From Conidiobolus incongruus B7586 (taxonomy: Eukaryota), in assembly GCA_000697335.1 (NCBI GenBank), contig JNEM01009543.1, forward strand, positions 1-45,587: a DNA stretch of 45,587 nt, in the 5' to 3' direction. Each line of letters begins with the position of its first letter. The first letter of the stretch is position 1. The translations under genes and the position numbers were made by a program. A model generated the notes under the pieces. That model saw nothing but the letters and a program-made list of their open reading frames with translations. It was not told the origin of the DNA and ran no database searches. Of this stretch, positions 3,200-27,925 are shown piece after piece.

Positions 3200-4500
3200 A
3201 CCATATCCAGGTACAAATCAAAATTTTTCAAGAATGGGTAATGGTTTGTTAGCTTGATCCTTGTATGGTACAATATCGTCAAAATTGATATTCAATTTTA
3301 TTTTGAGGATTAAAGCAGTTAATGATAAAGCTATTGCAGCGTTTTAGCACAGATCCAATTGGGAATTTAATGAAATGTACATCAATACGTGTGACATCTC
3401 TTTGCATACAGGAGAGTAAAGCTAGATAATGGATACGGGTATTTCTTACCCTTCATGGTTTTGTACAATCGTTTGGAATAAATTATAGCTTCATGCCTCA
3501 GGTCTTCAGCACTTCCTACAATAGTGAGATTAGATGTCAAATCGTTCAAGTGAGCATTCAGCATTGGCAAAACGGTGGATTATTGAAGAAGATTATAAGG
3601 ACACACAAAACTACTATATTATTCGATACGCTGTCTAAATCCTGATAGTATCCATAATATGCTATGCAATTGAATATGTATATCAATTGTTGTGGTTCTT
3701 TTAGAAACTATCATGATTTATAGATTTTGACATAATATCCCAATTCATTTCGGTAGCAAGGTTGGGTTGCAATCTAGTCATGTCGGTGGATGGCGACAAT
3801 AGCAGTATTTCAACAGCGTTCGGTTAGTTTGCTTTCTTCAAGAAGTAACACACTCTTGTGGAAAGGCCCCCTCCTGCACTATCTTCTCCCAAAAAGACTT
3901 AATCTTGAGATATTCCCAATGCATCTTCAGTTACTAGAGATGTGATATACTGCCACCTTAAAAATGTATCTTCAATGTGGCTTAACTCTGTAAATTCGGG
4001 ACATTTCCTATAGTCCAACGCAATCATTCTGCATTCCGAAGAATTTTCAATTCTTAATAATATTGAATAATATAATTTGACAGTCATAAACAATAGATCA
4101 TCTCCGTGGAAATAGTAAAGCATTCTCGTAGGTCTAGCACCACAACTATTGGGTATCAGCATATGAATTTCGAGATTTTAATACTTTGACCAATGGTGAT
4201 GACGCAGCATAGAGTATTCTTCATATTCTCCTATACAAAACTTTTTAACCAATTCTGACCCTCTACATCGAAATTTTTCAGGAACAAACTTAACTACAAC
4301 CTACAATCCCTAATCCCTGGAGCAGAATTCTTTTGATTGAACATTTTAAACTTTTCTAAATATTTTATAATGTGGAATTCTAGCATAACTTTTATCAGTT
4401 GTACTATTATGTGAAATTTTAAAGACTACGATTGTTTAAGAGGACAAAGATTAAAGTGTATTACTTCGGTTTTTAGCGGGGTACCTTATATTTAGGAGAA
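3200..4500 (-). pseudogene. Second decayed HSL/GDXG-family alpha/beta hydrolase; boundaries approximate
   Basis: YYFHGDD (HGGG), ALDYRKCPE, D*VFLGEDSAGGG (~3867-3900) and LTIVGSAEDLRHEA..CH are present. There is an in-frame stop immediately before the nucleophile elbow. Confidence 0.8.
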
Positions 4501-5103: not shown

Positions 5104-6421
5104 TAATATTACCTTGAATTTAAAATAATAGGAAATTTTTTAATTTCTGATTTTTCAAACATATTATTAGTTTGAAATAAATAAATATATATAAAGTTAA
5201 TAGGAAATTATATATTTTTAATATATATATATATATATATATTAGTTTTTTTGATTAAAAAATTAACTTTTTAAAATTGGTTGTTTAATTTAATTATGTT
5301 TAAACTAAATAGTGATCATCAAAAGTTTTTTATTTTAGTATCAGTAAAACTTAACTATAAACCCTTTAAAATTATTTAAAATTTACAAGCAGCTTTTAGT
5401 AATGAAGCATTATCTAAATCAACAATTTATCACTAGGTAAATTATTTTAAGGCTAAAAGAGAAACTATTCAAAACTTGTTAAAATCTAAAAGACTAACTT
5501 CAACTATTATTCTTTTAATTGTAAATAGAGTGAAAAAATATATTGAAAAGCACTTTTTTATTTCAGCTAGAGAATTATCTAAGCACTTTAATATTAGTTT
5601 TACAAGTATTTTATATATTTTAAAGTTTAAACTAAATAAATAAAAATATAAAACAGGTACCTTATAATTTAACTAAAGTTTAAAAAAAAGCTAGAGTAGT
5701 TATTGCTAAACAAAACTTATTGAAATATTACTAGAAGCTTAAACTTTTACAGCAAATAATTATAATTGATGAATCTTAAATCCCTATGTATAATCCTATA
5801 CTAAAACACAAATCAAGATGCTAAATTAATCTAAATCAACCCCCTTTATAAATCCCTTTAAATAAACATTTTGTTAATAAGCAAATATTAATTATTATAA
5901 TAGATTATAATAGTATATGCTATTCTTATTTAGTTCCTAAAGGAAAATCAATTAATAGTAAACTATATATTGCTTTTTTAAATAAAAGTATTTCTAATTG
6001 GTGTTCTCAATATAATTTGAGAAAACCTATTATTTTACATGATAATTGTAAAATATATAAATGTAAAGCTGTAAAAAACTTTCTAATTAAAAATAACTGG
6101 AAAAAACTACTACATCTAGTATATTCCTTTGATTATAACCTATGTGATTATAATTGCTTTAGGCAATTAAAAAACCAGCTTGCAGGAAAGAAAATTTCTG
6201 CAGGAAAATTTAATTGGTTTGTGAAACATCAAATTTCAGTCTTTAATAAGAATTGTTTTTTAGGTATTAGAAGTTTGCTAAAAGTATAGCAAAAAGTTAT
6301 TAATAATAAAAGAAACTACTAAATTTATATTATATATTTATTTTTATATATCATATATTCAAATGTTTATTTATTTTTAATTGCAAAAAATTCCCATTAT
6401 TAAAAATATAGAGTAATATTA
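5104..6421 (+). mobile_element. Full-length decayed mariner (DD34D) DNA transposon, ~1.32 kb; transposase relic 5296-6322
   Basis: Imperfect ~35-bp TIRs at 5104-5141 and 6385-6421, both with TA at the outer edge. Transposase motifs: LQAAFSNEALSKSTIYH* (HTH), KSKRL (RSGRP), VPYNLT (WVPHEL), IDES* (GDESW), HDN, HLVYSFDYNLCDY (HPPYSPDLAPSDY) and *QKVI..Y. There are 34 residues between the 2nd and 3rd Asp. Confidence 0.9.
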
Positions 6422-7046
6422 TTTTATTAATATTTTTATTAAATATATTTTCAATCAATTCAAATAACAATTGTCAATAATATAATAATAATTTTAGTCA
6501 ATTAAAATAATCATTCAAAATAACACTATTGAACCAGGTTAGTTGATCAAATGGAACATTTTAAAATATTTATACTTCCAAAAGAATATATTATATTAAT
6601 ATCAATTAAACAAAATTTTAGTAATAAATTTATATTAATATTTTTTCAAAAAAAAGTTCTTATATTTTTAACCAAGTACTAATTCCATCCTAATAATTCC
6701 ATTTATTATAAAATTTGTATTACGGAAAATATATTATTCCTTCTTCTATTTTTAGTATAATTTAAATAATTTCTAGGAAAATGATGAATTAATATAAATT
6801 TGAATAACAAATAAAGTTATATGCAAATAAAAACACTGATTAATAATAATGACACAATCTCAAAATAGAAATATCTATGCAATTTTAATTGAATGACTCA
6901 AATAGTGTATTTTAATTTGATAATGAGTTATTTAATACGTCATCTATTTTTTTATATAAATATTAAATCTTTTTAAAATTTTAATAAAATTTTATAAAAA
7001 AAAATTATAATACAAAATTTTAAAATTTAAAATTAATTTAAATATT

Positions 7047-8690
7047 ATGACAATGGTGAATTTAATCGAAGATGAGATTCAAAAGAGTTCAGCTTTGGAA
7101 ATAGCTAAAAATATTCGTTCTAAAAAGTGGACTGCAACACAAGTCATGGCAACTGTCATCCAGTTATCAAAACAAGCACAAGATTTCACTAATAGTGTCG
7201 TACTTTGGCAAGACAAAGAAGCCATGAAAGCCGCAGAAGGTCTGGATAGCAGAATTAAAGCTGGAGAAGAGTTCCCTGAGAAAGAATATCCATTTTTGGG
7301 TGTTCCTATATCTGTTAAAGATTTCTTTCATGTCAAAGGCTGGCCTACTTGGGGTGGTTACAAAAAAGCTGGCAAAGTAGTACAAGAAGAGGAAGCTACT
7401 ATTGTAACGGTTTTGAAAAAGTTAGGATGTATCCCATACTGCAAAACTAATGTCCCTCAATTTGGTTTAGCAACTGAAACTGCCAATCCTGTATTTGGGA
7501 CCACTACGAATCCATTCAATCCTAATTTTACTTCTGGTGGTAGCAGTGGTGGTGAAGCAGCTTTAATTGGAGCCCAAGGATCGGTATTAGGTATTGGAAG
7601 TGATATTGGTGGTAGTTTGAGAGTCCCAGCTAGTTTTTGTGGAATTTATTCATTCAAACCTACTCCTGGAAGATTTCCAAATTACGGTCAAATGTCAATT
7701 ATGTCGGGTCAGGATTCAATCAATTTTACGTCAGGCCCTATGGGAAAAAGTGTTGAGGATGTTGAAGCTATGTTTCGATATGTGATCAAATCTCAACCTT
7801 GGAAATTTGATGGCTATTGTACCAAGACTCCATACGATCCATACACCCTTAAAAAAGACCAAAAATTCAAAATTGGATATATGGTAAATAACAATCTTTT
7901 TCCAGCGACTCCATCTTGTGAGAGAGCAGTTTTAGAAGTAGTTGAATTATTAAGGAATCAAGGTCATGAAGTTTTTGAGTTTGATTTACCTGGAATTACC
8001 GATGCTTATCAGATAACCAGTCGTATTTTACTTGCTGACGGTTTAGAAAACGCTAAAAGGCACATGGGGTGGTATGAGACTTATTCGGCATTAACCGCAC
8101 CTGTTGTTAGAACTCTCCAAATTCCCAACTTTATTGCTAGAGGATTACAATTTTTGTTCACTAATATCCTTGGACAACACACTTTAGGTGATATTTTGGG
8201 TTTTTCAAATCTACCTTCTGTCACCACACTCTGGAATTACCAAGAGAGGAAAAATGATTTGAGTATACAAGCACTTAAAGCTTGGACTAAGACAGGAGAG
8301 GAAGATGGTCATCAAATGGATGTTTTAATATGTCCCGTTAGCGCAATGCCTCCTCAGAAGCACAATACTTTCATGTACATTAGTCCAACCCTTTGGCCCT
8401 GCATGATTTTCAACTTGCTGAACTATCCTAGTGGTGTGATCCCAGTAACTAAAGTAGATCCTGACTTAGATAGATTAGATAACGTGGATGAATGGCTCAA
8501 AGAGAAATTACCTAAAGATTATAATGGAGGAACTTGGGCCCAAAAATTATGTTATTCGTTTTATAATAGCAAAGAAATGGCAGGACTTCCAATTGGGATT
8601 CAAGTTGCTGCCAAAAAATCAGAGGATGAAAAGGTGCTAGAATTTATGAAATACATTGATGGTTTGATTAAAACTCATCAAATCAAATAA
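7047..8690 (+). CDS. Amidase-signature enzyme (FAAH/acetamidase-like), 547 aa, intronless
   Basis: GVPISVKD (catalytic Lys), KTNVPQ, GGSSGGE, GSDIGGSLRVPASFCG and GLPIGIQV. Confidence 0.95.
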   Translation: MTMVNLIEDEIQKSSALEIAKNIRSKKWTATQVMATVIQLSKQAQDFTNSVVLWQDKEAMKAAEGLDSRIKAGEEFPEKEYPFLGVPISVKDFFHVKGWPTWGGYKKAGKVVQEEEATIVTVLKKLGCIPYCKTNVPQFGLATETANPVFGTTTNPFNPNFTSGGSSGGEAALIGAQGSVLGIGSDIGGSLRVPASFCGIYSFKPTPGRFPNYGQMSIMSGQDSINFTSGPMGKSVEDVEAMFRYVIKSQPWKFDGYCTKTPYDPYTLKKDQKFKIGYMVNNNLFPATPSCERAVLEVVELLRNQGHEVFEFDLPGITDAYQITSRILLADGLENAKRHMGWYETYSALTAPVVRTLQIPNFIARGLQFLFTNILGQHTLGDILGFSNLPSVTTLWNYQERKNDLSIQALKAWTKTGEEDGHQMDVLICPVSAMPPQKHNTFMYISPTLWPCMIFNLLNYPSGVIPVTKVDPDLDRLDNVDEWLKEKLPKDYNGGTWAQKLCYSFYNSKEMAGLPIGIQVAAKKSEDEKVLEFMKYIDGLIKTHQIK

Positions 8691-9804
8691 CCAAATTAGC
8701 TGAACTTTTGATTAATGCAATGATTTATATCCATATATAACTCTTGGTTAAAAATAAAAATATCAATATTCTTATCGAAAAATATCACTGCTTCCACATA
8801 TGACAACTATTACAAAAAATACATTTTCATTGATACTGCAAATGTTTATATAAATTGATATCTACTTAGTTAAACCTTAAATTTCATGCTACATAACTTA
8901 AATTCATCCAATTGTATTATAATAATTATATTTTGAATTTTAAATATTTGATATCTAATCAAAAAAATGCTTTATAAATCAATAATAAGTAAAAGATTAA
9001 TTAATAATTATAAAAATTTTATGATTTTTTTAAAATAAGCGTCAAATAATATATATAACTGAAACATGATTTCTGAAATATCATAATTAAAATTTAATTC
9101 AAACGTATAATTATAATATTGAAAGATAAGTAAATTGATGATGTAAATATAACATAGATTATTCATTTGAACTATTTCAACAAGAATTTTTATCATATCC
9201 AATAAAAATGCTGTTAAAAAATGTAGTAATATTTTTGAATCAATTAAATATATGATACTCAAAGTAAAATGAAATATTGTTATATATAAATAATTAGAAA
9301 TTATAGTGATTTGTTAAATTTAAATCTACAAGTCTAACTTTAAAAAAATATATTATTTTCCATTGACCACTAATTAAAATATTTTGTTCAATTTTATTAG
9401 TATAATTGAGTTAATAATATTAAATATTTAATATGTAATATTGATATTGACATAATTAAATAAGGAATATATTGATTATATTTAATTATTCTTTGTGCAT
9501 TTCCCTGCTCATAATATTATTTTGATATTGTTCAGTTTCAAATATAAAATTCATATTATTTGCAAAAATTAAACATGTATAGTATGATTAATATTGCTTT
9601 GGTTATTAGGAACATATATTCAATTAATTTGAATTCATTAATTTTATAAATATACAATAATTTTTTCTGGAATACAAAATTTTTTTGAGTAAATTATTTG
9701 TAGTCAAATCCAGTCACATGATGAAATAAATAAAAAATTGTTTCGAGTTAATTTTATAAGTCTAGTATTCTTACAACAATTATGAAATAAATTGTTTGTC
9801 TACT

Positions 9805-11378
9805 ATGCATAAATATAATGCTATTGAAGAAGAAATTCAAGCGATTGCAGCTTTGAAAGAGGGTAACAAGGTTCGCTCTGAAGAATGTGCTGCGAAGCAG
9901 GTAATAGAGAAAGTGATAAAGATACTAAAACGAGCTCGCGAATTGAGCAACAATGTGATTCTGTTAAAGCAGCAGGAGGCTTTGGAAGCTTCTGAACACT
10001 TAGACATTGTTATTAAAGCTAGTTTTTCATTCTTAGAAGCTGAGCATTCATTTTTTGATGCTCCATTCCAAGGTTGGCCAATTTGAACGGTATATCGCAA
10101 GTTGGGAGAAGTGGTGCAAAAAGAAAATGCTATTTTGGCCATAGTGTTAAAAAATTAGGATGTATCCCATACTGCAAAACTAATGTCCCTCAATTTGGTT
10201 TATCAACTGAAACTGCTAATCCTGTATTTGGCGCTACCAATAATCCATATAATCCTGCATTTACCAGTGGAGAGAGCAGTGACAGTGAATGAGCATTAGT
10301 TAGAGCTCACAGTCCTATTCTCGAAATCGGAAGCGACTGAAGAAGTAGCCTGGGAATCCCAGGTAGTTTTTGTGAGAGCTATTCATTGAAACAAACTCCT
10401 GGAAAATTCCCAATAACTGGTAATCACAATTATCTCTCAGGTCAAGAGTCGACACTTACGGTACCAGGTCTAATGAGGAAGAGTGCTGACTATTTAGAGA
10501 CAGCATTTCGAAATATGCTTAAGTCTGAACCTTGAAAAATAAATCGCGAGTCAATTAAAATTCTTTACAGACAATTGGAGTTATCTAAAATAGACACAAT
10601 AAGATTGGATGTGTTGTAAATAATCAACTATTTTTGCAACTCCTGCTTGTGAATGAGCAGATTTGGTAGTCAAATTATTGAGAAGTCATTGTCGTGAAGT
10701 ATTTGAATTTAATTTACCTGGAATGGCTAATGCCTATAGGTTAGCGGCATCAATTCTAGCTGTACATGATCTAGAAAATGCAAAATAATTCGTGGAATGG
10801 AATGAGCCATACTTCTGAGTGAAAGTTGTACTCATTAGAAGCTTTGAAATTCTGAATTTGGTGATTCAAAGTTTTTATTTGGTTCTTGCCAGTATTTCTG
10901 GAAAAGGCTTTAAGTGATATTTTCAACTTTGTAGTACCCCTATACGTTGTCGAATTGAGGAACCATCAAGAGCAAAACAATCTTTGGGTGCTTGGAATAA
11001 CACAGGCCTTGATGGTAATGGGAAGGATATTTAAATATTGCCTGCAGTCGTATTGCTTCCTTAAAAGTATAACAATTTCATTTAGGTTAGTCCATGTCTC
11101 CAGCCTATCATGAATTTAAATATGCTCAACTATTCCAGTGAAGCGATTCTTGTGACTAGAGTAGAAGCTAATTTAAACAGATTGAATGAGACTGACCAAT
11201 GGTCGTAGAAGTTGCAAAAAATTATAAAGGAGGAGCTTGGGCACAGATTTTATGGTATTCACTTTATGATATTAATTAAATGACTGTGTTATTAATAGGA
11301 ATTCGAATTGTAGGCACAGAATCCGAATATGAAAGAACCTAAATTACTATGAGGTATATTGATGTTTTGATATTATAA
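9805..11378 (+). pseudogene. Amidase pseudogene, middle member of the tandem array
   Basis: Collinear with both flanking amidases (LGCIPYCKTNVPQFG, FTSGESSDSE*, IGSD*RSSLGIPGSFC, LNYSS, MRYID). Many stops, frameshifts and deletions. Confidence 0.92.
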
Positions 11379-12355
11379 AAATTAATCCATTCGAATTATA
11401 TTGTTCAAAATTATTACATTAAATCAAAAACTCAATTTTCTTCAAACACCTCAATACAAATTAAATTAATTCAAATCAAATCATGAATTATATATACACT
11501 ATTTTTTGTTTCAATACTTAAAGTTTAAAAATATTCATAAAATATATACAAAACAAATAATAAATTTAATAATCAATATTTAAAATGGATTGTGTTGATA
11601 TATTTTAATGAATTTTCAATTTATAAATATTGTAAAGATAATACTCTACATTATTTATTATAATAATTCATTAATATTCAAAAGGTTTGAGTTTGGAATA
11701 AATTCAACTTCCACATAATAATATAAGGCATAAAATTTCGCAAGATGAATAAGTTCATCAAATTTGTATTGATTCATCTTGATCGATTAAAAAAAATATA
11801 TATAAAGATGTCACAATGAAAAATATGATAACATTGTTTTAATATTTATAGAATTTAATATATTATAGTTAAATAAATACAATAAAATATTCAACACTAT
11901 TACATTATTCAATTAGTTATAATAAAATTGGTAAAAAATGAAGCATATATTAGTGACATCATCACAAGTCAGTGCATATTTGAATTTAATATAGTTCCAA
12001 TTTTTTCAATTATTTGTTATTCACGTATTGAAATCATATATTGTTATTAATGGAAATTTAAATTAATTGATTACTAACATTCCATAGAATCTACCTAAGA
12101 AATCCGACCATTTTTATAAATAAAATCCTGTTGAATATAATTTTTAATATTTAGTTCATAAATTGACATTAAAGTTCATCATCTTGAATATATGGATAAA
12201 TATCATAGATTTCAATTTGTAAGTATTAAATAATATTGTAAGAATTTGTCATCAGTTGAAAGTATTGTCCGAAAGTTTTAGTATATTAATCACAAATCAA
12301 AATCGAAAAACAATTAAGACTTAGTTTCAATTGACAATAATATCACAATTTAAAA

Positions 12356-13999
12356 ATGAAAAATCAAAATTCAATTGAAGAAATTCAAGAACTATCAGCT
12401 TTAGAAGTAGCTAACAAAATCCGCTCGAGGAATTGGACTGCTAAAAAAGTGATGGAAACAGTGATTCAGATGACGGAACGGGCTAACGCATTTACCAACA
12501 GTGTAATTCTTCTGAAGGAACAGGAGGCGTTAGAAGCCGCTGAACGTTTGGATATCGATATTCAAGCTGGGATTTCATTTCCTGAATCCGAGTATCCTTT
12601 TCTGGGAGTTCCGCTATCAGTGAAAGATTCCTTCCATGTTAAAAATTGGCCAACTTGGGGCGGTTATCAGAGGTTAGGAGAGGTTGATCAACAAGAAGAT
12701 GCTACAATTGTTGCATTGTTGAGACAGTTGGGATGTATTCCCTATTGTAAAACTAATGTACCTCAATTTGGATTGACTACTGAGACCTCTAATCCAGTGT
12801 TTGGTGTCACTAAGAACCCTTATAATCCTGAGTTTACTTGTGGTGGAAGTAGTGGCGGTGAGGGTGCTCTAATCGGTGCGAGAGGCTCCATTTTGGGAAT
12901 CGGTAGTGATTCAGGAAGTAGCTTGAGAATTCCTGCGAGTTACTGCGGGATCTATTCGTTCAAACCAACTGCTGGACGATTTCCAATGGCTGGTCACTTT
13001 CGATTCTCTTCGGGCCAAGATTCGATTTTGACTTCTCCAGGGCCTATGGGTAGAAGTGTGGATGACCTTGCAGCTGTATTCCGTCATGTTATTCAGTTAA
13101 AACCTTGGGAAATTGATAGTGACAGCACTAAAACACCATATGAACCATTTCAATTTACTAAAGAGAAACGTTATAAGATTGGATATATTGTCAGCAATGG
13201 TGTATTCCCTTCGACTCCAGTATGTGAACGAGCGGTGTTAGAAGTGGTTGAATTATTGAAGAAAGAGGGACATGAAGTATTTGAATTCAAGATACCTGGA
13301 GCAGCTGAAGCGTACAAATTAGCTGGAGCTATCTTAGTATCGGATGGCTTAGATAATGCAAAGCGATTTATGACTTGGTCTGAATCGTATACTTCCTTAA
13401 TCTCACCATTAGTTAGAGTCCTTCAAATTCCAAACTTTGTCAAGAAATGTTTGCAGTATGCACTGGCAAATTTCTTGGGACAGAAGACATATAGCGATTT
13501 ATTGACCTTTTCAATCCTGCCAACTGTTGCCAAGTTATGGAATTATCAAGAGCAAAAGAATCAATTGGCGAAAGAAACTTTGGATGCTTGGATCAAAACT
13601 GGGGAGAAAGATGGCCATCAAATGGATGTATTAATATGTCCTGTTTCTGTATCACCACCCCAAAAACACGATACCTTCATTGCTATCAGTCCGTCGCTGT
13701 GGCCCTGTATGATCTTTAATTTATACAATTATCCAAGTGGTGTTATTCCTGTGACTAAAGTTGATGCTGATTTGGATCGAATGGATAATGTCAATCAATG
13801 GCTGAAAGAGAAATTACCTAAGGATTATAATAGAGGTTATTGGGCGCAAAAATTATGTTATTCATTTTATAATAGTAAAGAAATGGCAGGTTTACCTATT
13901 GGTGTTCAAATCGTGGGTAAGAAATCGAGTGATGAAAAGGTTTTAGAGTTTATGAAGTATATAGATAGTTTGGTTAAATTTGATCACAAATATAAATAG
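12356..13999 (+). CDS. Amidase-signature enzyme (FAAH/acetamidase-like), 547 aa, intronless paralog
   Basis: GVPLSVKD, GGSSGGEG, GSDSGSSLRIPASYCG and GLPIGVQIV. Same length as 7047-8690 and collinear with it. Confidence 0.95.
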   Translation: MKNQNSIEEIQELSALEVANKIRSRNWTAKKVMETVIQMTERANAFTNSVILLKEQEALEAAERLDIDIQAGISFPESEYPFLGVPLSVKDSFHVKNWPTWGGYQRLGEVDQQEDATIVALLRQLGCIPYCKTNVPQFGLTTETSNPVFGVTKNPYNPEFTCGGSSGGEGALIGARGSILGIGSDSGSSLRIPASYCGIYSFKPTAGRFPMAGHFRFSSGQDSILTSPGPMGRSVDDLAAVFRHVIQLKPWEIDSDSTKTPYEPFQFTKEKRYKIGYIVSNGVFPSTPVCERAVLEVVELLKKEGHEVFEFKIPGAAEAYKLAGAILVSDGLDNAKRFMTWSESYTSLISPLVRVLQIPNFVKKCLQYALANFLGQKTYSDLLTFSILPTVAKLWNYQEQKNQLAKETLDAWIKTGEKDGHQMDVLICPVSVSPPQKHDTFIAISPSLWPCMIFNLYNYPSGVIPVTKVDADLDRMDNVNQWLKEKLPKDYNRGYWAQKLCYSFYNSKEMAGLPIGVQIVGKKSSDEKVLEFMKYIDSLVKFDHKYK

Positions 14000-17820: not shown

Positions 17821-19284
17821 ATGGAAAATAACAATACCACAAAACTAGATGACATAATTCATCAAATTAAAAAATTATCAACTCAAGATAAAACTCAATT
17901 GTAAAAAGCATTTAGATATCATTCTATTCATAACTAATCACAATTTTCTAGTTTTGATACTCTTATTCAACAAGCTAGTGCTTTAGACTGTTATTTGTTA
18001 CAAAAGAGTTTAAATGACCAAAATAGAGGTAAATTCAACTTAATAAAGTATTTACCAAAGGACCTAAGTCTATTGGTTTTTAAGTATTTGGAAGGTGATG
18101 ATATTTTAAATTGTTTTATTGTAAAATTATATTATTATCAATATGATGAATTGTTAATTAGTTCGTTATAGTCATGCAAATCTTGGCACTTATTACTAAA
18201 AGATGAAAGCTTTTGGTATAAAAAATATTTTCAAAACTTGTTAATTGGAGAATTGGACCCTTTGGACCAAAGGAAAGATATTTCTTACTTTAAAAAGTAT
18301 ACACTGCTGTTGCATCGTAAGAGGAATTGGTCGCTGGGCCTGCCGAGTCGTACGTCATCGGCTATCTTTCCGTATAATATCGATAAGACTATGCTTTTGG
18401 GCCCTAAGGAACTACTCGTGGTGGGTGATAATAGGGAGGTGAGATTGATTCATATTCTGAAAAGATGGTCTATCACAAGCTGGAAATTGCCTCAGATTTG
18501 TATTTTGTTGGATTTGGATTGGGATAATGGTCTGTTACTTGCGTGTCCATATGGTAGAGAGTGTTATGTTATAAATATTCATAATGGGAGTTTGGTAAAT
18601 AGGTTAATTGGCCATACTTCGCTGGTTACACATGGTGCTTTCTCATCAAAGTATATTATTACACAGTCTGGCGATCATACAATCGAACTTTGGTGTAAAA
18701 GAAATTATCAGTTGGTTCACACTATTCCAATTTATGAGTATCCCATCCTAGCATTAAAGATCATTTCAGATACTAATTTACTATTAATAGTGAATGTATT
18801 TGGGTTTATTCAACTCTACGATTTAGCCACTTTACAAATCATTCAAACATTCCATCCCCTAAATTGGACTAGGGACACAATTGACTCTACGGATAACAAT
18901 CAATTCAAACACTTTTCAATCTACCACCATACGATTGTACTTACCCAAAGCACCATGATATTCAATATCCATTACAACTCAAACACAAACAATCTCCAAT
19001 TAATCAAACTCAAACTACATAGCTCCATCATTCGATCCATATCATTGAATGCCATGGGCCTCGTCATCGGCAATTTTACGTACAATTCCATCACATCGTC
19101 AATGGTACACTTCTGGGACTTAGAATCTCCTACAAACAGTATCATTCCTATAGAGTGCAAACCCAGTTTCAATTTTGTAGCGCTCTGCAGCAACAATAAC
19201 ACTGTGGTACTGAGTGGTAAGACCAATACCGATACTTTATTTTGGTTGGATTTTTTACCCATTCAAAACCAGCTAACTTTATGA
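17821..19284 (+). CDS. F-box/WD40-repeat protein, 3 exons
   Basis: Exons 2-3 give the F-box LIKYLPKDLSLLVFKYL..DILNC..SCKSW..L..DESFW. WD repeat LIGHTSLVT..SGDHTIELW. Confidence 0.8.
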
Positions 19285-19772
19285 AGGGTTATTTATTTGG
19301 AATTATATAATCCAACATATATTATTCTTAATGAGTTTTTCAAACAAAATTCCAAGTTACGTATGCTATTCCATTAAATATATTTATCAGCTGTCGATAA
19401 TTTGACCAAATCCATTGCTGATCTTTAACTGTAAGAATGATTGTCAGTTGGAGAGGAAAAAAGTTTTTTATAAAGGAATTGTCTTATCCTCAACTTCAAT
19501 GGTAAACAGCTAATTTAATAGAATTTAATATTATATATGATAAAAAAATATAAAAACTATCAATTAATAATCTGCCAAAACCAATATGAAAAATAAAATT
19601 TTTGAAAGCTAGTAGAATTTATGTTATTAATTTATTTTAATTCGATTGAAATTTTGTCATTTTAGAAACATCTTTATAAACTTCATTTTGAGTGACATAG
19701 ATAATGGGACCATATTACATTAAGTTATCAATAATAATATGTTTTTTATTGATTTAAATATTTAAACTTTTT

Positions 19773-20765
19773 CTATTTTTGAATTTTCAAAGAGAAATCA
19801 ACGGGAGTGACACCATAATTTAATCCACTCATACTGATAATATCGATATTGGGGCCAAAATAAGAGGTAATATTGTCAATATTAATACCTCCAGAAGCTT
19901 CCAACAAGAAGTTGTACCTGCCCTTATATTGCTCCTTCAAAGATTTGGCGACTTGGTGCAATTCGGGCGGTGAAATATTGTCCAACATGATGATATCAGC
20001 ACCACTTTCAATAGCTTCTTTGGCTTCTTGTTCGGAACCGACTTCGACGTCGATCTTCATACTGAAGCCACCAACGCTCTTGGCGGCTTGGACGGCTTCT
20101 GTGATACTACCGCGACTCCAAATGTGGTTGTCTTTGAGCATGATCATGCTACTGAGATCCATACGATGCATGTCACAGCCTCCAACTAACATACCATACT
20201 TTTCAACGAGACGGAAACCGGGCGTAGTCTTTCTACTACCAGCAATCACACCTTGAAATCCTTCCTTTTCCTTAAGAGCGGTAAATTTGCGGCATCTAAC
20301 CAAAAAATCAACACAAATTTTAAAATCTAAATAAAATAAACTTACTGAGTTGCGATAGAACTGCATCTGCCAAAAATATTGAGAGCTAATCTCTCGCCAA
20401 TTAAAATATCTTTACATTGACCAGTAACTTTAGCGACGGGTACCTTCTTAGCACCAAACTGTTCAGGATCAATAACAGTACCCTCTTCATAGTGCCATTC
20501 AACTTTGCAGTTAGTCAAGCGGAAGACTTCGTTGAAGAATGGAATACCAGCTAATACTGACTATTTCCCAACCCATTGTTAATTTTGATACAATTATTTA
20601 TGTTGATATTTTACTTACATAACTCTTACAATATAAAACAGCGACTTCTTGTTTGACACCGACTACAAAACCACCATAGTCTAAAGAAGGGATATCTTCC
20701 TGTAGCCAATTCGCGATAGTTTGATGCCATTGAGGTGGTAATAAATGTTCGTATTGTTTACTCAT
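19773..20765 (-). CDS. BNA6: Nicotinate-nucleotide pyrophosphorylase (quinolinate phosphoribosyltransferase), 3 exons
   Basis: [57 protein letters not shown] and EASGGI. Confidence 0.97.
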
Positions 20766-21992
20766 ATTTATAATAATTATTATTATTTTGTTTTTTTTAT
20801 ATTATTCCCAAAGTTGAAATCATCCATATATAATCAATGTGGTTATTTATTTTAATTATGGGATTGATATTTGAGGTCTTAAGAACAGTCCATTATAAAA
20901 TTATTTGGGAAATTTTTTAAATGATATCTGCTATTAAAAATCAACCTTGCCAAATAAAAAGTATGAGTCTTTACATGTTGAATTACGAAAAAATTGGAAA
21001 ATATAGAGGTATTAACTATATATTCTTAATACTTCGATTAGACTTGAATTATTACTAATAAAGTTTAGTAAACTTAGAATTTAGTTCGATGAAATTAGAG
21101 TATACCATATCAATAAATAATATTATTGTTATATAACTACAACACACAATATTAAAAATAAGTTGGGACTGAATTTTGAGAGAATAATAGATTAATCAGG
21201 ATATTAAAAAGATAGGGATACTGAGTCAGATGATATTTTCTCGAAGTTTAGTAATCACAATTCAACATTGAACTTATATTGCTAATTTCAAATGATATAA
21301 TTTTATAGATAATGTGGCAATTATTTGAAGTGCAATTAATTAAATATAATGAAATAATATATGTAAGAGAATTTTTATTAATTAAACTAAATATTTCTAA
21401 TTTCATTTGGATTGAATCTAATATTGAGGTATATTTATGATCTAAATAAACTACCAGAGGTTTTTAAATATATAGTGATAATTTTTACAAACTCTAGCTG
21501 ATAAATATTTGGCTTCATGTTGTGTAATTTAAATATGGCAAAATTAGAATCTTTTAGTAGTTGATATGTTAATACTCATCATATGGTATTTTAAAATAGA
21601 ATATATTCATGGTATAATGATATTTGGTTGCTCATGTTGGAAAAAAATTCTAGTAAATTAATCAGAGAGATATTAATAAATATTCTCATATTCTTTTTAA
21701 ATCATATATAACATTAAATTTAACAATCGTATGTTAAAAATATTTTAAATTTACTGCTTCTCAACTATCAAGCTTAAATAAAATTTATTTTTCAATTATG
21801 AACCCATTTAAATTCTTTAACCATTCCCGAAACTTCCAATGATTCTGAGCACGCCTATCAATATTTAATTAAGGCCGAGATAAACTATCACTTGCAACAC
21901 AGATTTTTGGTTATTGTTTTACAATAATGTTTAATTTCAAAAAGTACAGCAGCAAATACACTATTACCGTCTTCAGTCAAATATGAGCAAAT

Positions 21993-22560
21993 ATGATTAT
22001 TCCTGCTTCTAAAATTCAATATTTTACAATCTCATCAACAAGTCTTAAACATTAGAATAGAACAGAAAAGATTAAAACCATATGAACTTTAGGTAAATTC
22101 AAGTTTCACCCAGTTTCCAATATTTGACAACTTCTCAATCAACCTAAAAAGCCACGCCCGACCTAGAAACTTACGATACAAGAGTCTCTTTGAAACGTCA
22201 AAATTAACACCTTAAAAAAGCTTCCCGAATATGAAATCGTGTGATATATTAGATTGAAATTTAGCCTCAAATCAAATAGTTTTTATATTTATTAAAAAAT
22301 TTTATAAACGGATTATTCTCTAAAATTATTATTATTTTGAAAAACATTGTTGTTAACAATTTAAATTCCATAGGTTCATCTTTAAAAAACTATCACATAA
22401 CTAATAGTTTTGTTAAATCCACAAAAAGCATGATTTAACAAGGGAACTTAAAGATTACTTTTTAAAATATCTAATTATTTTATAACTAAGATTAATTAAA
22501 TATATTATACAAAAATGAAGAAAATAAAATACAACATAAAAAAAGACATTAAAAAATTTC
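21993..22560 (+). pseudogene. tnpA: IS607-type TnpA (MerR-like HTH plus serine recombinase) relic
   Basis: MIIPASKIQYFTISSTSLKH*NRTEKIKTI*TLG (HTH; LRRW..GKI..RTPG), TRVSLKRQ at 22178-22201 (YARVSS..Q, catalytic Ser), PEYEIV*YIRLKFSLKSNSF (DIGSGLNFKRKGF), LL..INGLFSKIII, FIFKK..LIVL and ELKD..NYFITKIN. Confidence 0.8.
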
Positions 22561-22569
22561 AAAAAACTG

Positions 22570-24098
22570 ATAGAAAAAAAACAAAATTAAGCTGTTTCCA
22601 AACCTTAACAAGAAGATATATTGATAGAACGGTTTAGAGTAATAAACTAGACTTATAATCAATATTTCAGAATGGTTGACAGGAGTAAATAAAATAAATT
22701 AAAAAACTAATATCAAATATGTAAATATAAAAAGCTCAAAGGATGAAATCTAGTTGGTATTAGAAATTACTTATATTTAAACATAACAATACACAACTTC
22801 CTAAAAATATAAAGACCAATTTTATCACTCACAAGAAATAATATAATATAAAAGTATATAAAATTAATTTGAGTTATTATTAATTTTAATTACTAGATAA
22901 AAAATGTTTTCCACTATGCCTATTTTAATAGCAAGCTAATTCAAACAACTAGACCATTTCCAGAAAAGCTCAATTATAGTTATTACCTTTAAATGATAAA
23001 ATTTGTTATAGATATTAATTGTGATATATTTCGTTTTGAATTTATTTTATGTTCATTTTATCACATTTAATCATATTTTACTGATATATAATATTGAATT
23101 CATATTTTAAAATATTTAATTATTCAATACTATACCCTTAAGTATTATATAATTTATTTTTTGATTATTGTAAACTTAATACCAATACCTTATATTGTTG
23201 AATTAACTTAATATTTTTATGTAAACTTATAATAAAGATATTTCATTATTTTTAATTAATCTAATTATTAAAAATTACAAATATAAAATTAAATAATCAT
23301 AATTGATATTATCTTCCTCTACATATAAATTAAATATCCATATTATTCTATTATTATTAAACTTCAAGAACACATTTTGATACCACTAAAAATTAATTAA
23401 GATAATAAAGCTTTTTTGTGAAATATAAAAAAAGAATTTTAGATTTTGATCCAAACATATAATCTTTTACAACTAATTACTCTTTTTTAATTAGATTGTA
23501 ACTTGAGTAAAAAAGATATTGAGAGAATTCATTGTTTCTATTTTACTTATAATAAGTTATAAATCAGATAATCTTAAAGAAATCTACTAAGGAAAATATT
23601 ACAAAATCAGAAAATAAATCCAAAACCTTCTGGATAAGGTATGTAAGAAACTTAGCAAATTGATTAATAAAAAAATGCATAATTTTACTTTAATTGGAGA
23701 CTGAAAAAATGGGGAGAAAAGCTAGTAAATGGATTGAGAGTAAAAGTATAAATGTAATGTTAAGATGGTTTTATTACAGATTTAAATAATACTTACTCAA
23801 CCAAATAAGAGAATACCTTTAGTGCGAGTTAATCATCTGTGATAAGCATTATATAAGCAAAACATGTGGTAATTGTGGATATTTGCATATATAACCTTGA
23901 TCAAGCAAGACTTTCAAGCATCTTCAATGTTATGTTGAGATGAATCAAAACGCCAATACTGCTAGAAACACACTCTCTCACTATTTAACAGTCAATCGAG
24001 CCAGCCTTTCAACATTGGGGTTGGGGCTTACTCCATTGGGATCTCTAGACTCTATGCAGGATTTGGACAATTTTAATTGTGAGCGATATCTAAGTTAA
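22570..24098 (+). pseudogene. tnpB: Fanzor2/TnpB RNA-guided endonuclease relic
   Basis: KIKLFPN..QEDILIERF..*TYNQ, VLEITY..FLK..KTNF, PFPEKLNY, RuvC-I LDFDPNI*SFTTNYS (23442-23483), IQNLLDKVCKKL, RuvC-II IILL*LETEKM, MLRWFYYRFK*YLL..REY, Zn finger SKTCGNCG (23856-23879), RuvC-III NQNANTARN (23943-23969). Confidence 0.9.
23004..23372. mobile_element. ~370-bp insertion in tnpB, probable solo LTR
   Basis: TnpB homology stops at ~23003 and resumes at ~23375. The insert begins TGTT, ends AACA and contains AATAAA. The TSD is only partial (aaatt/cattt). Confidence 0.45.
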
Positions 24099-24118
24099 AA
24101 TAAATCAATAAAATTGAT
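23985..24118 (+). ncRNA. Candidate omegaRNA (right-end RNA) scaffold plus flanking guide of the Fanzor2 element
   Basis: GC-richer segment directly after the RuvC-III codons, with hairpin GGGG-CTTA-CTCC (24023-24034). Abrupt return to AT-rich flank after ~24098. This is the position expected for TnpB/Fanzor guide RNAs. Confidence 0.5.
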
Positions 24119-25418
24119 TATAAAAATATATTGAATAGAAACCTCAATCTGGTTCTAAATTCCTTGCCATAGATTTTATATTGTCATTTTAAAATACCTA
24201 AATTGATATTCTGTTGTGAAGTCAAATGATTCAAGTCTTTAGTTACATATGAATGAAAAAAAATAATGGCAAAGAGAATTATTATTTGATTGAAAATGAT
24301 TTTTAATTCATTAATTATCAGATAAGTATATTTCACAATATTGATTAATATATGGTTAATTGAATTTGAAATATGCTAGAATTAATTGTTTTATAGATGA
24401 TTGAAATGGGATATAGTGTAATTAAACCATACTAAAGTAATTTAACTAATAAATTTTTATAAGATTGTCATCGTCTGCTTTATACTCTATTAGTAATTAT
24501 TTTTTTTCAAATTCATAATATTAACTTGATACCAGCAATGAAAGTTATTAAAAAAAATTAGAATTAAGTTATAAATTTTAATTTATCAAGAAACCTAGAT
24601 ATCCCGCAAATTTCCTTGAATAATTTGAAGACCAATAGTAAATGTAATAATATATTTTGGACTTTTGACTCTTGTGAAGATTAGGAAATTTGGTCAAATG
24701 TATAATCTGATTATCCACTTCACTATTTCCCAAATTTAGTACCAGGGTTTATCGGAATAAATGGTTAGAATGTTATAAAACAAATTTTTTACATTATCGA
24801 AATTAATAATATCATTAGTATAATTTGTTAATTTATCCCTATTTTCATATATTCAAATTAACTGGCTGTTTTTTATGATATTATTTTTAAAGTATATGGA
24901 ATGTTGTTATAATTTAGAGTTAATTTCAATAGTTGGTAAGGGATAAAATATGAGAATAATAAAAATGGAAAATTTTCAAATCCTGAGGGAAGCTAATTAT
25001 TCCATTAATATGAAGTAATAAATTAATTATACAAAAATCATAGCCTTATCATGCCAGTATTATATTTAGTACTATCTATGATATATTATCCTAAGCTTAA
25101 ATATAGTTTTAAATTCCATCCTTTTAATATGACAATAAATGGACTGAGATGAAGTAAGTCTGAAATATCTCTGGCTCGATTATTGATTCAAAAATTTTGA
25201 GACTGAAGTGAATTTCAAGTTTGATAACAATTCTCATAATCTAAGTGATCTGGAAAAGTGTTAGATGAGTGAAAAATGAGCCAATCAAATGTTAAAGACA
25301 TTTTATTTGATAAATTCGAGTTGTTCAGTGCATGAGATTTTATTTGAAAATGGGTTTCAAGTGCTTCAATATAAATAGATTTCCATTGACAAAATTTAGT
25401 GTATGATTAATATAACCA

Positions 25419-26645
25419 ATGATTCCCTCATCTCCCGTTCATAAACAATGGTCTCCTCAAAACGATGTATACTGTGAAGATGTAGTCCAAGAGTTTTCCA
25501 CTCTTTTAGGTGCTGAAATGTATGTGGACTTGACTAAACTACGTCAGATTTCTAGATATGGCATCCCCGACGAATTACGTGGGGTAAACCTTGATGGTTT
25601 TTTTTACAATGAACTTCTTGACCAATAATCATTTTAGGATGTATGGAAGTATTTACTCAAAGTTGAAAGCGCTGATAGAAGTAACATTCATCTATTGTAC
25701 TATATATTATGAACAATTATTAAATATTTTATTTAGCTAATGATATGGAAACTTATAAGCTCAATGAAGCGGAATACTTTCAACTTAGACCTCAAACCCA
25801 TGAATATACTAACAAGATACGTGGTGAAGTCAGTCGACTTCAAAATAGAATACAAAAGGTTCTCCCTAGCAAGTTATATGAAGATGTTATTGGAGCATAC
25901 TTGAACTATAACAAGCAAGCGGAATTTAATCCAAGTTGGGTTCATCTCTGTACACCTTTTGTGTTGGTATTAGAAAGAGAAGTAGAAGTATTTTATTGCT
26001 TTAAGAACCTAATGCAAATAATAGGTATTATATTTAAGATCCACTTGGCTCAAATTAGATTAATTTAATATCTAGACGATTACTTCTATACAAACCCCTT
26101 GGAAATACAGCTCACTCGCTTCCAAACTTTATTCCGAATGTTAATACCCGATTTGTAATATTTTTGATATATTCCAATTGTAATAAAATTACTAAAATTA
26201 CTAATATTTTATAGAAATGATTATTTTGAAGAAGAACAAGTGTCAATATACGAATGGACTACATCTTGGTTAACGAATTTATTCGCCAAAGAAATGCCCC
26301 CTGCGACACTAATATCTCTTTGGGATTTATATTTTGGAACTACCAATTTTATGGATCTTCATTTATATATGTGCATAGGTAAACTTTATCGGTATACTAT
26401 CTTGAACTAATATTTATACTATTTTGTTATAGCTATCTTACAGCAAAATCGAGAAAGGTTAGAAGAGTTAGAAAATTCAGAAATTAAGGCATTTTTATCT
26501 AGACTTCCAGAAATGGATATATTTACGGTAGGATATTTTATTCTATTATCTTGATTGTTGTTAATATGTGGTATTCTATTAGATCCGTCAAATTGCTACA
26601 GATCTTCAGCACCAAGCAATGGAAACATTAGCTGACCAACTTTGA
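25419..26645 (+). CDS. Rab-GAP TBC-domain protein, multi-exon
   Basis: DLTKLRQISRYGIPDELRG|DVWKYLL, EVFYCFKNLM, IPDL..YFEEE, W..W..LF..LWDLYF and HLYMCI|AIL. Confidence 0.85.
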
Positions 26646-27925
26646 TCTTGTACTTTGGATTAAATGTTATCTCATTTTTGGTCCATTTCCACTTTTTCTC
26701 CATCATCCAATATGCTTGATTTCGTTAATTCACTTTCTTAAATCTTTCTCTCTCCTTTTTACTCTATATTCATTTACACTCTCACTCTACATACAACAAT
26801 TTAAATATTTCGTCTTTCGTGCTCCAATTGTCACTCTGTATAATATATATACATAATTATTATCAAATTGTAATAGTTTTTGTATGCTAAAGTTACGAAT
26901 TTAGATGTTCTGTGGTAAAACTTTGCGTTAAGCATTAATATAGCCATCTATTCACTAATATCTTCCTAATTGACGAGGTATCAACAGATAAATTATCTGA
27001 TATATTAGTTTCACAAAATTTGTGTATGTAACTGCTACTTTCGCACCATTGACCAAACGTACCCCCTAAAGAATTCAATTCCTCTAATTATACACCTAAT
27101 ATAGTAAACTTTTTAAATACCTATAAGAGATTTAATTGTTTTATATAATTGTTGTATTTTGAAGAGTGAATCCCCTTCTCTTCCATGATCAACTCTAGTA
27201 TAAATATCTTTAAAAATTCTAATAATTGTATCATAAAACCACACTGATCATTTGATAATCTTATCACAAAATAAAAATAAATAGCATTACAAAATTAATG
27301 ATGATATATACTAATTAATTAAAAGTTACCATTTATTTTATCTAATCAACTCTATCTAATATTATTCTTTATAATGATGAATTTATAATTTTATATAATG
27401 ATATATTTCATATTTTATCAAATATTAAAAAACCAAAATTATAATTAAGATTAGATCTGATTAGATAATTTATGATTATGAACAATTTATATTAATATCA
27501 AATCATAGATTTGTTATAGTTATATATATATTTAAGTTTTATGAAACATATTTTCTATTAACAATAGTAGAAATATAAAATATCAGCTTAAGTTCAATAT
27601 TAGCATTTAATCATATAATATTAGGCAAATTGTATTCCTAACTATTGTAATACTCATATTTTTTACTAAATCATTGAACTATATGTATTAGATTAATATA
27701 ATTCATATAATAGAAATATTTAATAACGATTAAATATATGTAACTAGAAATTTAAGATATTATAAAAGCCATATATACATTGATTTATGAATTATAATTT
27801 TTTTCATATTTCAAAAACATACTTGATAATTTAGAAATTTCATTCAATTTGGTTCCGTTCAATTTTGTATATCAGGGATTATGTCATTTATTATAAATCT
27901 TTTATCAAATATAATGATATAGTTT

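Follow-up and report, generated by a model that had tools for sequence, protein, structure and literature searches.

A probable dead IS607-type transposon with TnpA and Fanzor2 relics, and candidate traces of its mobility, in a fungus-like genome

We examined a 45,587-nt stretch of DNA (the window), in which positions 21821-24067 are probably a dead, full-length eukaryotic IS607-type transposon whose family is likely to have spread long ago in the probably fungal host by its own serine recombinase. This element type is already known in eukaryotes including fungi; what is new here is the candidate evidence for an empty locus, a modest addition. Because IS607-Fanzor2 elements are a known type, the relic alone would be ordinary; the trace of mobility adds value, as the text of Gilbert and Cordaux reports that no evidence of IS607 transposing in eukaryotes was found (Gilbert and Cordaux, 2013; PMC3673617).

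Comparison with known elements

Bao and Jurka (2013; PMC3627910) described Fanzor2 as part of IS607-like elements that also carry a serine recombinase, and the name IS607EU is used in PMC13565253, the sole use of the term found in our literature search. With the eukaryotic elements as portrayed in PMC3627910 the present one has in common an HTH-first recombinase, a downstream Fanzor2 on the same strand, a length of ~2.2 kb, a DPG-type RuvC-I with a Glu position that precedes the zinc finger by six residues, and the fact that no inverted repeats were found. The TnpA-bearing examples named in these accounts are from Acanthamoeba and giant viruses, not from fungi, and supplements may list fungal ones; unlike those examples, both genes are dead here, the family is multi-copy, and a candidate empty second locus is present. 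IS607-like sequences in Ustilago and yeasts were reported with no transposition evidence in the account of Gilbert and Cordaux (2013), where the fungal, oomycete and amoebal sequences likewise have decayed ORFA/ORFB between eukaryotic genes and the donor is also left unresolved. The Mimivirus IS607/ApmFz2 element (9b0l; Jiang et al., 2023; PMC10530073) has the same two-gene layout but is described as intact, active, viral and present in three copies, whereas the element in the window is nuclear and broken. The TnpAs of bacterial IS607, IS1535 and ISC1926 (Chen et al., 2018; PMC6188088) share the domain order and the catalytic motif; the ends of bacterial IS607 are described with a GG core, and the named cyanobacterial TnpAs form a separate clade. 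Our literature search found no paper that documents an unoccupied insertion site of an IS607 element in a fungal nuclear genome; supplements or Repbase may hold such cases.

Locus and features

The window is AT-rich (GC 0.17-0.42 across its length) and contains three amidase copies, a WD40/F-box-like gene, Nse4, RNase P Pop3, QPRTase, a TBC-domain gene and ChaC, all eukaryotic. The best solved-structure match of the QPRTase exon was 3c2e, which we take to be the yeast enzyme, at 204 bits vs 170 for the next group. From these genes and this match, the host genome is likely fungus-like and the locus nuclear. The element sits in the spacer between QPRTase and the TBC-domain gene, i.e., between eukaryotic housekeeping flanks. 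No ORF of 80 or more codons was found in 20412-25723, and a scan of 16 flanking ORFs found no bacterial or viral gene. One 3,703-nt contig from an independent read assembly spans the element and both flanks. The features of the element are as follows.

21821..21992, + strand: left end and 5' non-coding region, terminus at ~21817-21824 (sister contig coverage)
21987..22523, + strand: IS607 TnpA (serine recombinase) pseudogene (frameshift-aware alignment, tblastn)
21987..22151, + strand: MerR-like HTH, N-terminal, in one frame with 3 stops (alignment, tblastn, hmmsearch)
22181..22189, + strand: catalytic R-V-S, kept, followed by the LxRQ helix at 22190-22201 (alignment)
22245..22280, + strand: site of the DIGSGLNxKR motif, largely eroded (DIGSG keeps 1 of its 5 residues)
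22423..22496, + strand: helix E region at the C-terminus (TRELxxD / NYFxxKxN), interrupted by a frameshift (alignment)
22514..24005, + strand: Fanzor2 (TnpB-like) pseudogene (profile alignment, PF07282, PDB match)
22514-22774, + strand: Fanzor2 N-terminal part (43.5 bits vs null maximum 20.2)
23011..23350, no strand assigned: AT-rich stretch (~350 nt, GC 0.14) in the Fanzor2 gene, unmatched by relatives (composition, profile gap)
23430-24005, + strand: Fanzor2 RuvC/zinc-finger part with 12 stops and 3 frameshifts (190.6 bits vs null maximum 26.6)
23994..24067, + strand: right end and 3' non-coding region (predicted guide-RNA scaffold), terminus at 24059-24067 (sister coverage)

Several features were noted elsewhere in the window. 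A Tc1/mariner-like DDE transposase fragment lies at 5852-6289 on the + strand (DDE_3, E 0.002; Transposase_1, E 0.067). Positions 52-141 and 5104-5193 form a 90-nt inverted repeat, 83% complementary, which encloses two divergent alpha/beta-hydrolase genes or fragments (~2100-2360, + strand; 3760-4180, - strand); perhaps the whole is an inverted duplication. The amidases form a tandem array on the + strand (7011-8690, ~9750-11100 and 12341-13999), the outer two intact and intronless and the middle one carrying stops.

Detection of the TnpA relic

Pfam and NCBIfam scans of single frames (3/3) gave no Resolvase, MerR or IS607 match in the TnpA region. Since single-frame family scans of the window gave nothing, natural TnpAs were collected and the window DNA was aligned to them with stops and frameshifts allowed. 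Of 150 cluster representatives gathered with the giant-virus MAG protein L057 (chosen by eye for its likeness), 146 went into a profile that scored 53.3 bits, compared with a mean of 15.6 and a maximum of 23.8 for 200 dinucleotide shuffles. With this profile the region ranked first among 224 window tiles (best unrelated tile, 27.4), and the alignment was collinear, with profile positions 2-186 of 220 laid over 21987-22496. Six of the 256 single-protein frameshift-aware alignments scored 58-71 bits. A second profile, built from the 8 closest relatives as picked by score, reached 104.2 bits against a maximum of 23.6 in 300 shuffles, the modal residue being matched in 62 of 170 codons.

Two further methods pointed to the same place. 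In tblastn against the whole window, the metagenome protein P0285 hit the TnpA region at E 2e-6, and the HTH (21987-22151) was 44% identical over 50 residues to P0283 (plain tblastn, whole window, E 3e-6); hmmsearch with the close-relative profile gave the HTH an i-E of 7.5e-8. All of the closest intact relatives tested (7/7) passed the NF033518 (IS607) cut-off; the miss of this model on the window's single frames is expected given the 8 frameshifts of the relic. The Resolvase and MerR HMM search proposed in the sequence-only reading thus failed on single frames and succeeded in the form of the frameshift-aware IS607 profile and the HTH hmmsearch. tblastn on plasmids and phmmer on PDB gave no TnpA match, a first protein-level profile stayed at chance level (14.4 bits), and other distant profiles scored 29-31 bits against shuffle maxima of 19-23. 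An apparent minus-strand signal was discarded as an artefact of the plus-strand background.

The empty single-frame scans and the weak distant profiles are what could be expected if the likeness were a chance resemblance in AT-rich spacer. We regard this, together with contamination, as hardly conceivable: the profiles score 53-104 bits against shuffle maxima of 24 and run collinearly over 185 profile positions, an independently significant Fanzor2 adjoins the relic, and the element is contiguous with host genes in an independent read assembly. We concluded that the resolvase-family similarity proposed earlier is present (53-104 bits vs shuffle maxima of ~24, with relatives that pass NF033518), and the comparisons at sequence level confirm the TnpA relic of IS607 type as real.

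Motifs and decay of TnpA

The four TnpA motifs named in that reading were found where it had placed them, and they match the corresponding positions of the IS607 TnpA profile. The N-terminal HTH precedes the catalytic domain, so that the domain order is kept. The linker to the RVS at 22181-22189 is 22.7 codons long, within the range of 17-57 in 113 natural proteins. Of the two placements of the catalytic motif tested, this was the better one; the alternative, with the motif at 22153 and the RVS occurring by chance, scored 3 vs 10 bits and implied a linker of 15.3 codons, outside 17-57. Only 3 codons separate the RVS from the LxRQ helix in the relic, compared with 10 in 124 of 132 natural proteins, which indicates that 7 codons (21 nt) were deleted directly behind the catalytic serine. 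YIRLK (22245-22259), proposed as a DIGSG-like segment, holds by position and not by sequence, as 1 of 5 residues is kept. The C-terminal EL.D..NYF..KIN helix (22444-22496) is genuine as proposed, although it crosses a frameshift. The extent given earlier for the gene, 21993..22560, agrees with our alignment in its start region and overshoots at its end, where homology stops at 22496-22523.

The 170 aligned codons contain 8 stops and 8 frameshifts, and 25 of 65 conserved TnpA positions are kept; to call the transposase "retained" was therefore an overstatement. With these lesions and the 21-nt deletion behind the RVS, TnpA is dead. Both genes are broken, and this copy is predicted to supply no functional transposase. 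Conserved sites were changed more often at G/C (68/124) than at A/T (19/151), and the decay appears to be mostly G:C to A:T. A strand-biased, RIP-like G-to-A decay is not supported (44/98 G sites vs 8/26 C sites, p 0.26).

Fanzor2 relic and element ends

Profile alignments placed the Fanzor2 directly downstream of TnpA on the same strand, and so bore out the order and strand of the two-gene unit described earlier. The present copy is not autonomous today, as both genes are dead. The Fanzor2 relic matched PF07282 (E 1.3e-4), and the best PDB match of its C-terminus was 9b0l, "TnpB-like protein L79" (E 6e-4). The RuvC-I Asp at 23448 is kept with the D-P intact, and the third residue of DPG is changed. 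The alternative Glu position (23844), six residues before the first CxxC, is Lys, and the RuvC-III Asp position (23949) is Asn, so that 2 of the 3 catalytic residues are changed; CGNC is kept. A Fanzor layout with D-P and an alternative Glu before CxxC is given by Yoon et al. (PMC10711439), and Fanzor2 is stated to be "found broadly in fungi" (Saito et al., 2023; PMC10432273). By position, the relic conforms to the Fanzor2/pro-Fanzor layout (DPG at RuvC-I, Glu six before CxxC). Fanzor profile positions 205 to 223 occupy 406 nt where 54 are expected; the AT-rich stretch 23011-23350, around which no clear terminal repeats were found, is a candidate decayed intron or nested insertion. Swapping in sister-copy letters raised the Fanzor score at 9 sites and lowered it at 5. 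The decayed Fanzor tail as a query found nothing in the viral contigs or the protein collection.

The approximate ends give an element of 2,239-2,247 nt, with each terminus known to ~8 nt; one sister contig runs off at 24067, and the left-end sequence occurs once in the window. No inverted match longer than 6 nt was found between 21791-21960 and 23991-24110, and decay could mask short ones. In 56 position-matched comparisons of the right end with relatives, the best was the metagenome locus L160 (z 5.6, equalled in 0 of 200 shuffles), with part of the score coming from coding tail. A left-end likeness to L160 seen by eye was dropped (20 of 200 shuffles were equally good). The right-end fold was no better than shuffles (z -0.18) and had no Rfam match, and exact left-end motifs were absent from the metagenome and viral collections.

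Copies in the host and a candidate empty locus

Contigs were taken from read assemblies of runs X1 and X3. Four runs of one sample contain the stretch; the window itself probably derives from this sample, and the runs are not independent evidence. No contig of two other runs under the same species label (2/2) matches the stretch, and there is no RNA run among the matching runs listed. In run X1, 240 contigs align to 19000-27000, and for 122 of these the likeness is below 90%. Up to 36 contigs (X1) and 33 (X3) with differing flanks share the left end at 21877, and 17 (X1) and 16 (X3) share the Fanzor end at 23896. Contig coverage peaks at both element ends and drops at 21824; among the 12 of 526 loose ends listed, those at the left end begin before 21824-21845 with 0.64-0.76 agreement, and the letters before 21824 are unrelated to the window. 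Among the 15 of 23 joints listed, at least two, each in one contig, connect the left end with the 3' part of the Fanzor gene (21925 to 23844; 21941 to 23830), as expected of internally deleted copies, and others link the left end to TnpA. At 80% likeness few other contigs reach into the TnpA interior (mean depth 71-80 vs 46.6), so that no intact copy was seen.

At the locus itself, the 3,703-nt contig (depth 46.6) matches 20728-24430 exactly, and a second contig of 1,466 nt (depth 38.4) stops at the same place. The right anchor of this shorter contig (its 1186-1466) corresponds to window 24157-24430, and its left anchor (its 840-882) to 21540-21582, 43 nt with 6 mismatches, where the match continues by eye. 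Between the anchors 303 nt replace 2,574 nt of the window, a shortfall of 2,271 nt, and the joint of the short version is present in both X1 and X3. Removal of the element would leave 327-335 nt compared with the 303 found, a discrepancy of 24-32 nt between versions that are separated by many indels. The short version is collinear with the window and fits a candidate empty locus, read at two anchors and not across the junction.

The depths of the two locus versions are near-equal (92 and 79; 46.6 and 38.4; 44 and 46). An apparent half depth at the locus was set aside, as depth tracks GC content and both versions are near-equal. Over 274 nt, the versions are separated by 37 substitutions and 17 gaps. 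Version differences were also counted at 20303-20642 (24 in 340 nt) and at 26845-26996 (23 in 152 nt), most of the spacer being less than 80% alike; such divergence at near-equal depth suggests that the sample genome may be a hybrid, very heterozygous or duplicated.

The short version could be an ordinary deletion, and segmental duplication, or passive transport within a larger piece of viral or bacterial DNA, could have produced the extra ends; in that case TnpA would never have worked here. Such a history would suit a short version that is read at its anchors and not across the junction, and locus versions as divergent as these; moreover, according to the text of PMC3673617, eukaryotic IS607-like sequences present in several copies mostly arose by segmental duplication. 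We consider it improbable, as the missing length equals that of the element within ~1.5%, coverage is highest at the ends and drops at 21824, where the loose letters listed bear no relation to the window, the left flank is covered by 3 records only, and the 16 flanking ORFs contain no viral or bacterial gene. Another possibility is that the family was moved by a different transposase that captured the unit, as in Fanzor2* with inverted repeats, TnpA being a passenger. Capture of Fanzor2 by inverted-repeat transposons is published (PMC10711439), most sister contigs match the ends alone in the manner of non-autonomous elements, and a Tc1/mariner-like fragment is present in the window. The absence of an inverted repeat longer than 6 nt between the end regions, and the IS607 layout and size of the unit, make this very improbable, and the description of Fanzor2* in PMC10711439 does not include a TnpA.

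We thus return to spread by the element's own recombinase. Proliferation of IS607 in the fungal nucleus, with the dozens of ends, the unrelated flanks, the deletion derivatives and the empty locus taken as direct evidence of transposition of the sort that the 2013 survey did not obtain, appears rather likely to us. The earlier proposals of transposition within the fungus and of copies with different flanks fared well in this analysis: many ends with differing flanks were found (36 contigs at the left end, 17 at the Fanzor end), together with internally deleted copies and a locus version short by the element's length. By analogy with systems described in PMC6188088 and PMC10711439, TnpA would bind the element ends through its N-terminal HTH, the RVS serine would cut at a 2-bp core with excision of a circle, and the circle would insert with neither inverted repeats nor a duplication of the target; Fanzor2, guided by an RNA from the right end, would cut empty sites and so contribute to keeping the element. 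This copy may have inserted into, or left, one of the host's two divergent locus versions and then decayed, chiefly through G:C to A:T substitution. With an occupied and an unoccupied version of one locus in a single genome, and dozens of ends besides, the termini of a nuclear serine transposon and its 2-bp core would become readable.

Relatives and source of the element

In a TnpA tree of 76 rows, which included 10 named cyanobacteria and 30 giant-virus MAG rows, the window nests with the metagenome proteins P0285 and P0283 (97/85). Its wider clade of 33 rows (100/99) holds a Diversispora epigaea protein, an intron-bearing locus, metagenome rows and 3 of the 30 giant-virus MAG rows (L057, L060 and L164), and all of the named cyanobacterial TnpAs (10/10) fall outside it. 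The window branch is very long (2.81 and 1.08). The branch of L160 is implausibly long as well (1.82), probably because of a misread first exon; its closeness to P0277 is taken from the sequence identity given below. The Fanzor tree (70 rows) did not resolve the position of the window but placed it outside the cyanobacterial/phage clade (99/96).

The best two Fanzor matches of 144 were L160 (136 bits) and L126, both of them loci with introns of spliceosomal type. L160 is a metagenome contig of 2,399 nt with TnpA at 225-913 and an open Fanzor frame; its TnpA is interrupted at the K-D of the KDRL motif by a 65-nt GT-AG intron, unlike the window copy, in which no intron is seen. In L126, also a metagenome contig, an 88-nt intron-like insert lies near 963, just before the Fanzor2 DPG strand. 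L160 is a candidate intact fungal element: its TnpA is 90-92% identical to Diversispora epigaea Glove_9g274 (P0277), a fungal IS607 TnpA in the window's broad clade. P0277 is not the nearest TnpA to the window, as it scores only 23.8 bits. L160 and Diversispora are candidate intact fungal relatives in which scar-free transposition and Fanzor2 homing could be examined.

The earlier suggestion of horizontal transfer directly from bacteria or large DNA viruses fits poorly with a TnpA clade that holds a Diversispora protein, an intron-bearing locus and three viral rows and lacks the named cyanobacteria. A direct bacterial donor is unsupported, since the wider clade contains an arbuscular mycorrhizal fungal protein and intron-bearing loci and the nearest relatives lie outside the cyanobacterial clade. 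Arrival straight from a bacterium or giant virus, not via eukaryotic relatives, would agree with the three giant-virus MAG rows in the 33-row clade, with the intronless window TnpA and with nearest proteins that could themselves be viral; giant viruses of zoosporic fungi are named as a possible route in PMC12247965. We judge it unlikely nonetheless: in both trees a supported clade sets the named cyanobacteria apart, no relative turned up when GTDB genomes were scanned for exact peptides of P0123 and P0285 (a test of low sensitivity), and the best Fanzor matches (L160/L126) are intron-bearing, a candidate grouping of the window Fanzor with them not being rejected (p-AU 0.37). The TnpA phylogeny that had been proposed groups the window with P0285 and P0283, apart from the named cyanobacteria; as immediate donor, a bacterium appears less likely than another eukaryote or a eukaryotic virus. 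An ultimate prokaryotic origin is the published view for the whole IS607 family. Among the sequences collected, we also observed an unannotated IS607 TnpA with a TTG start at 154611-155132 of Microcoleus phage OR578706.1 (L001/L005), which overlaps an annotated 561-aa pro-Fanzor ORF in a different frame.
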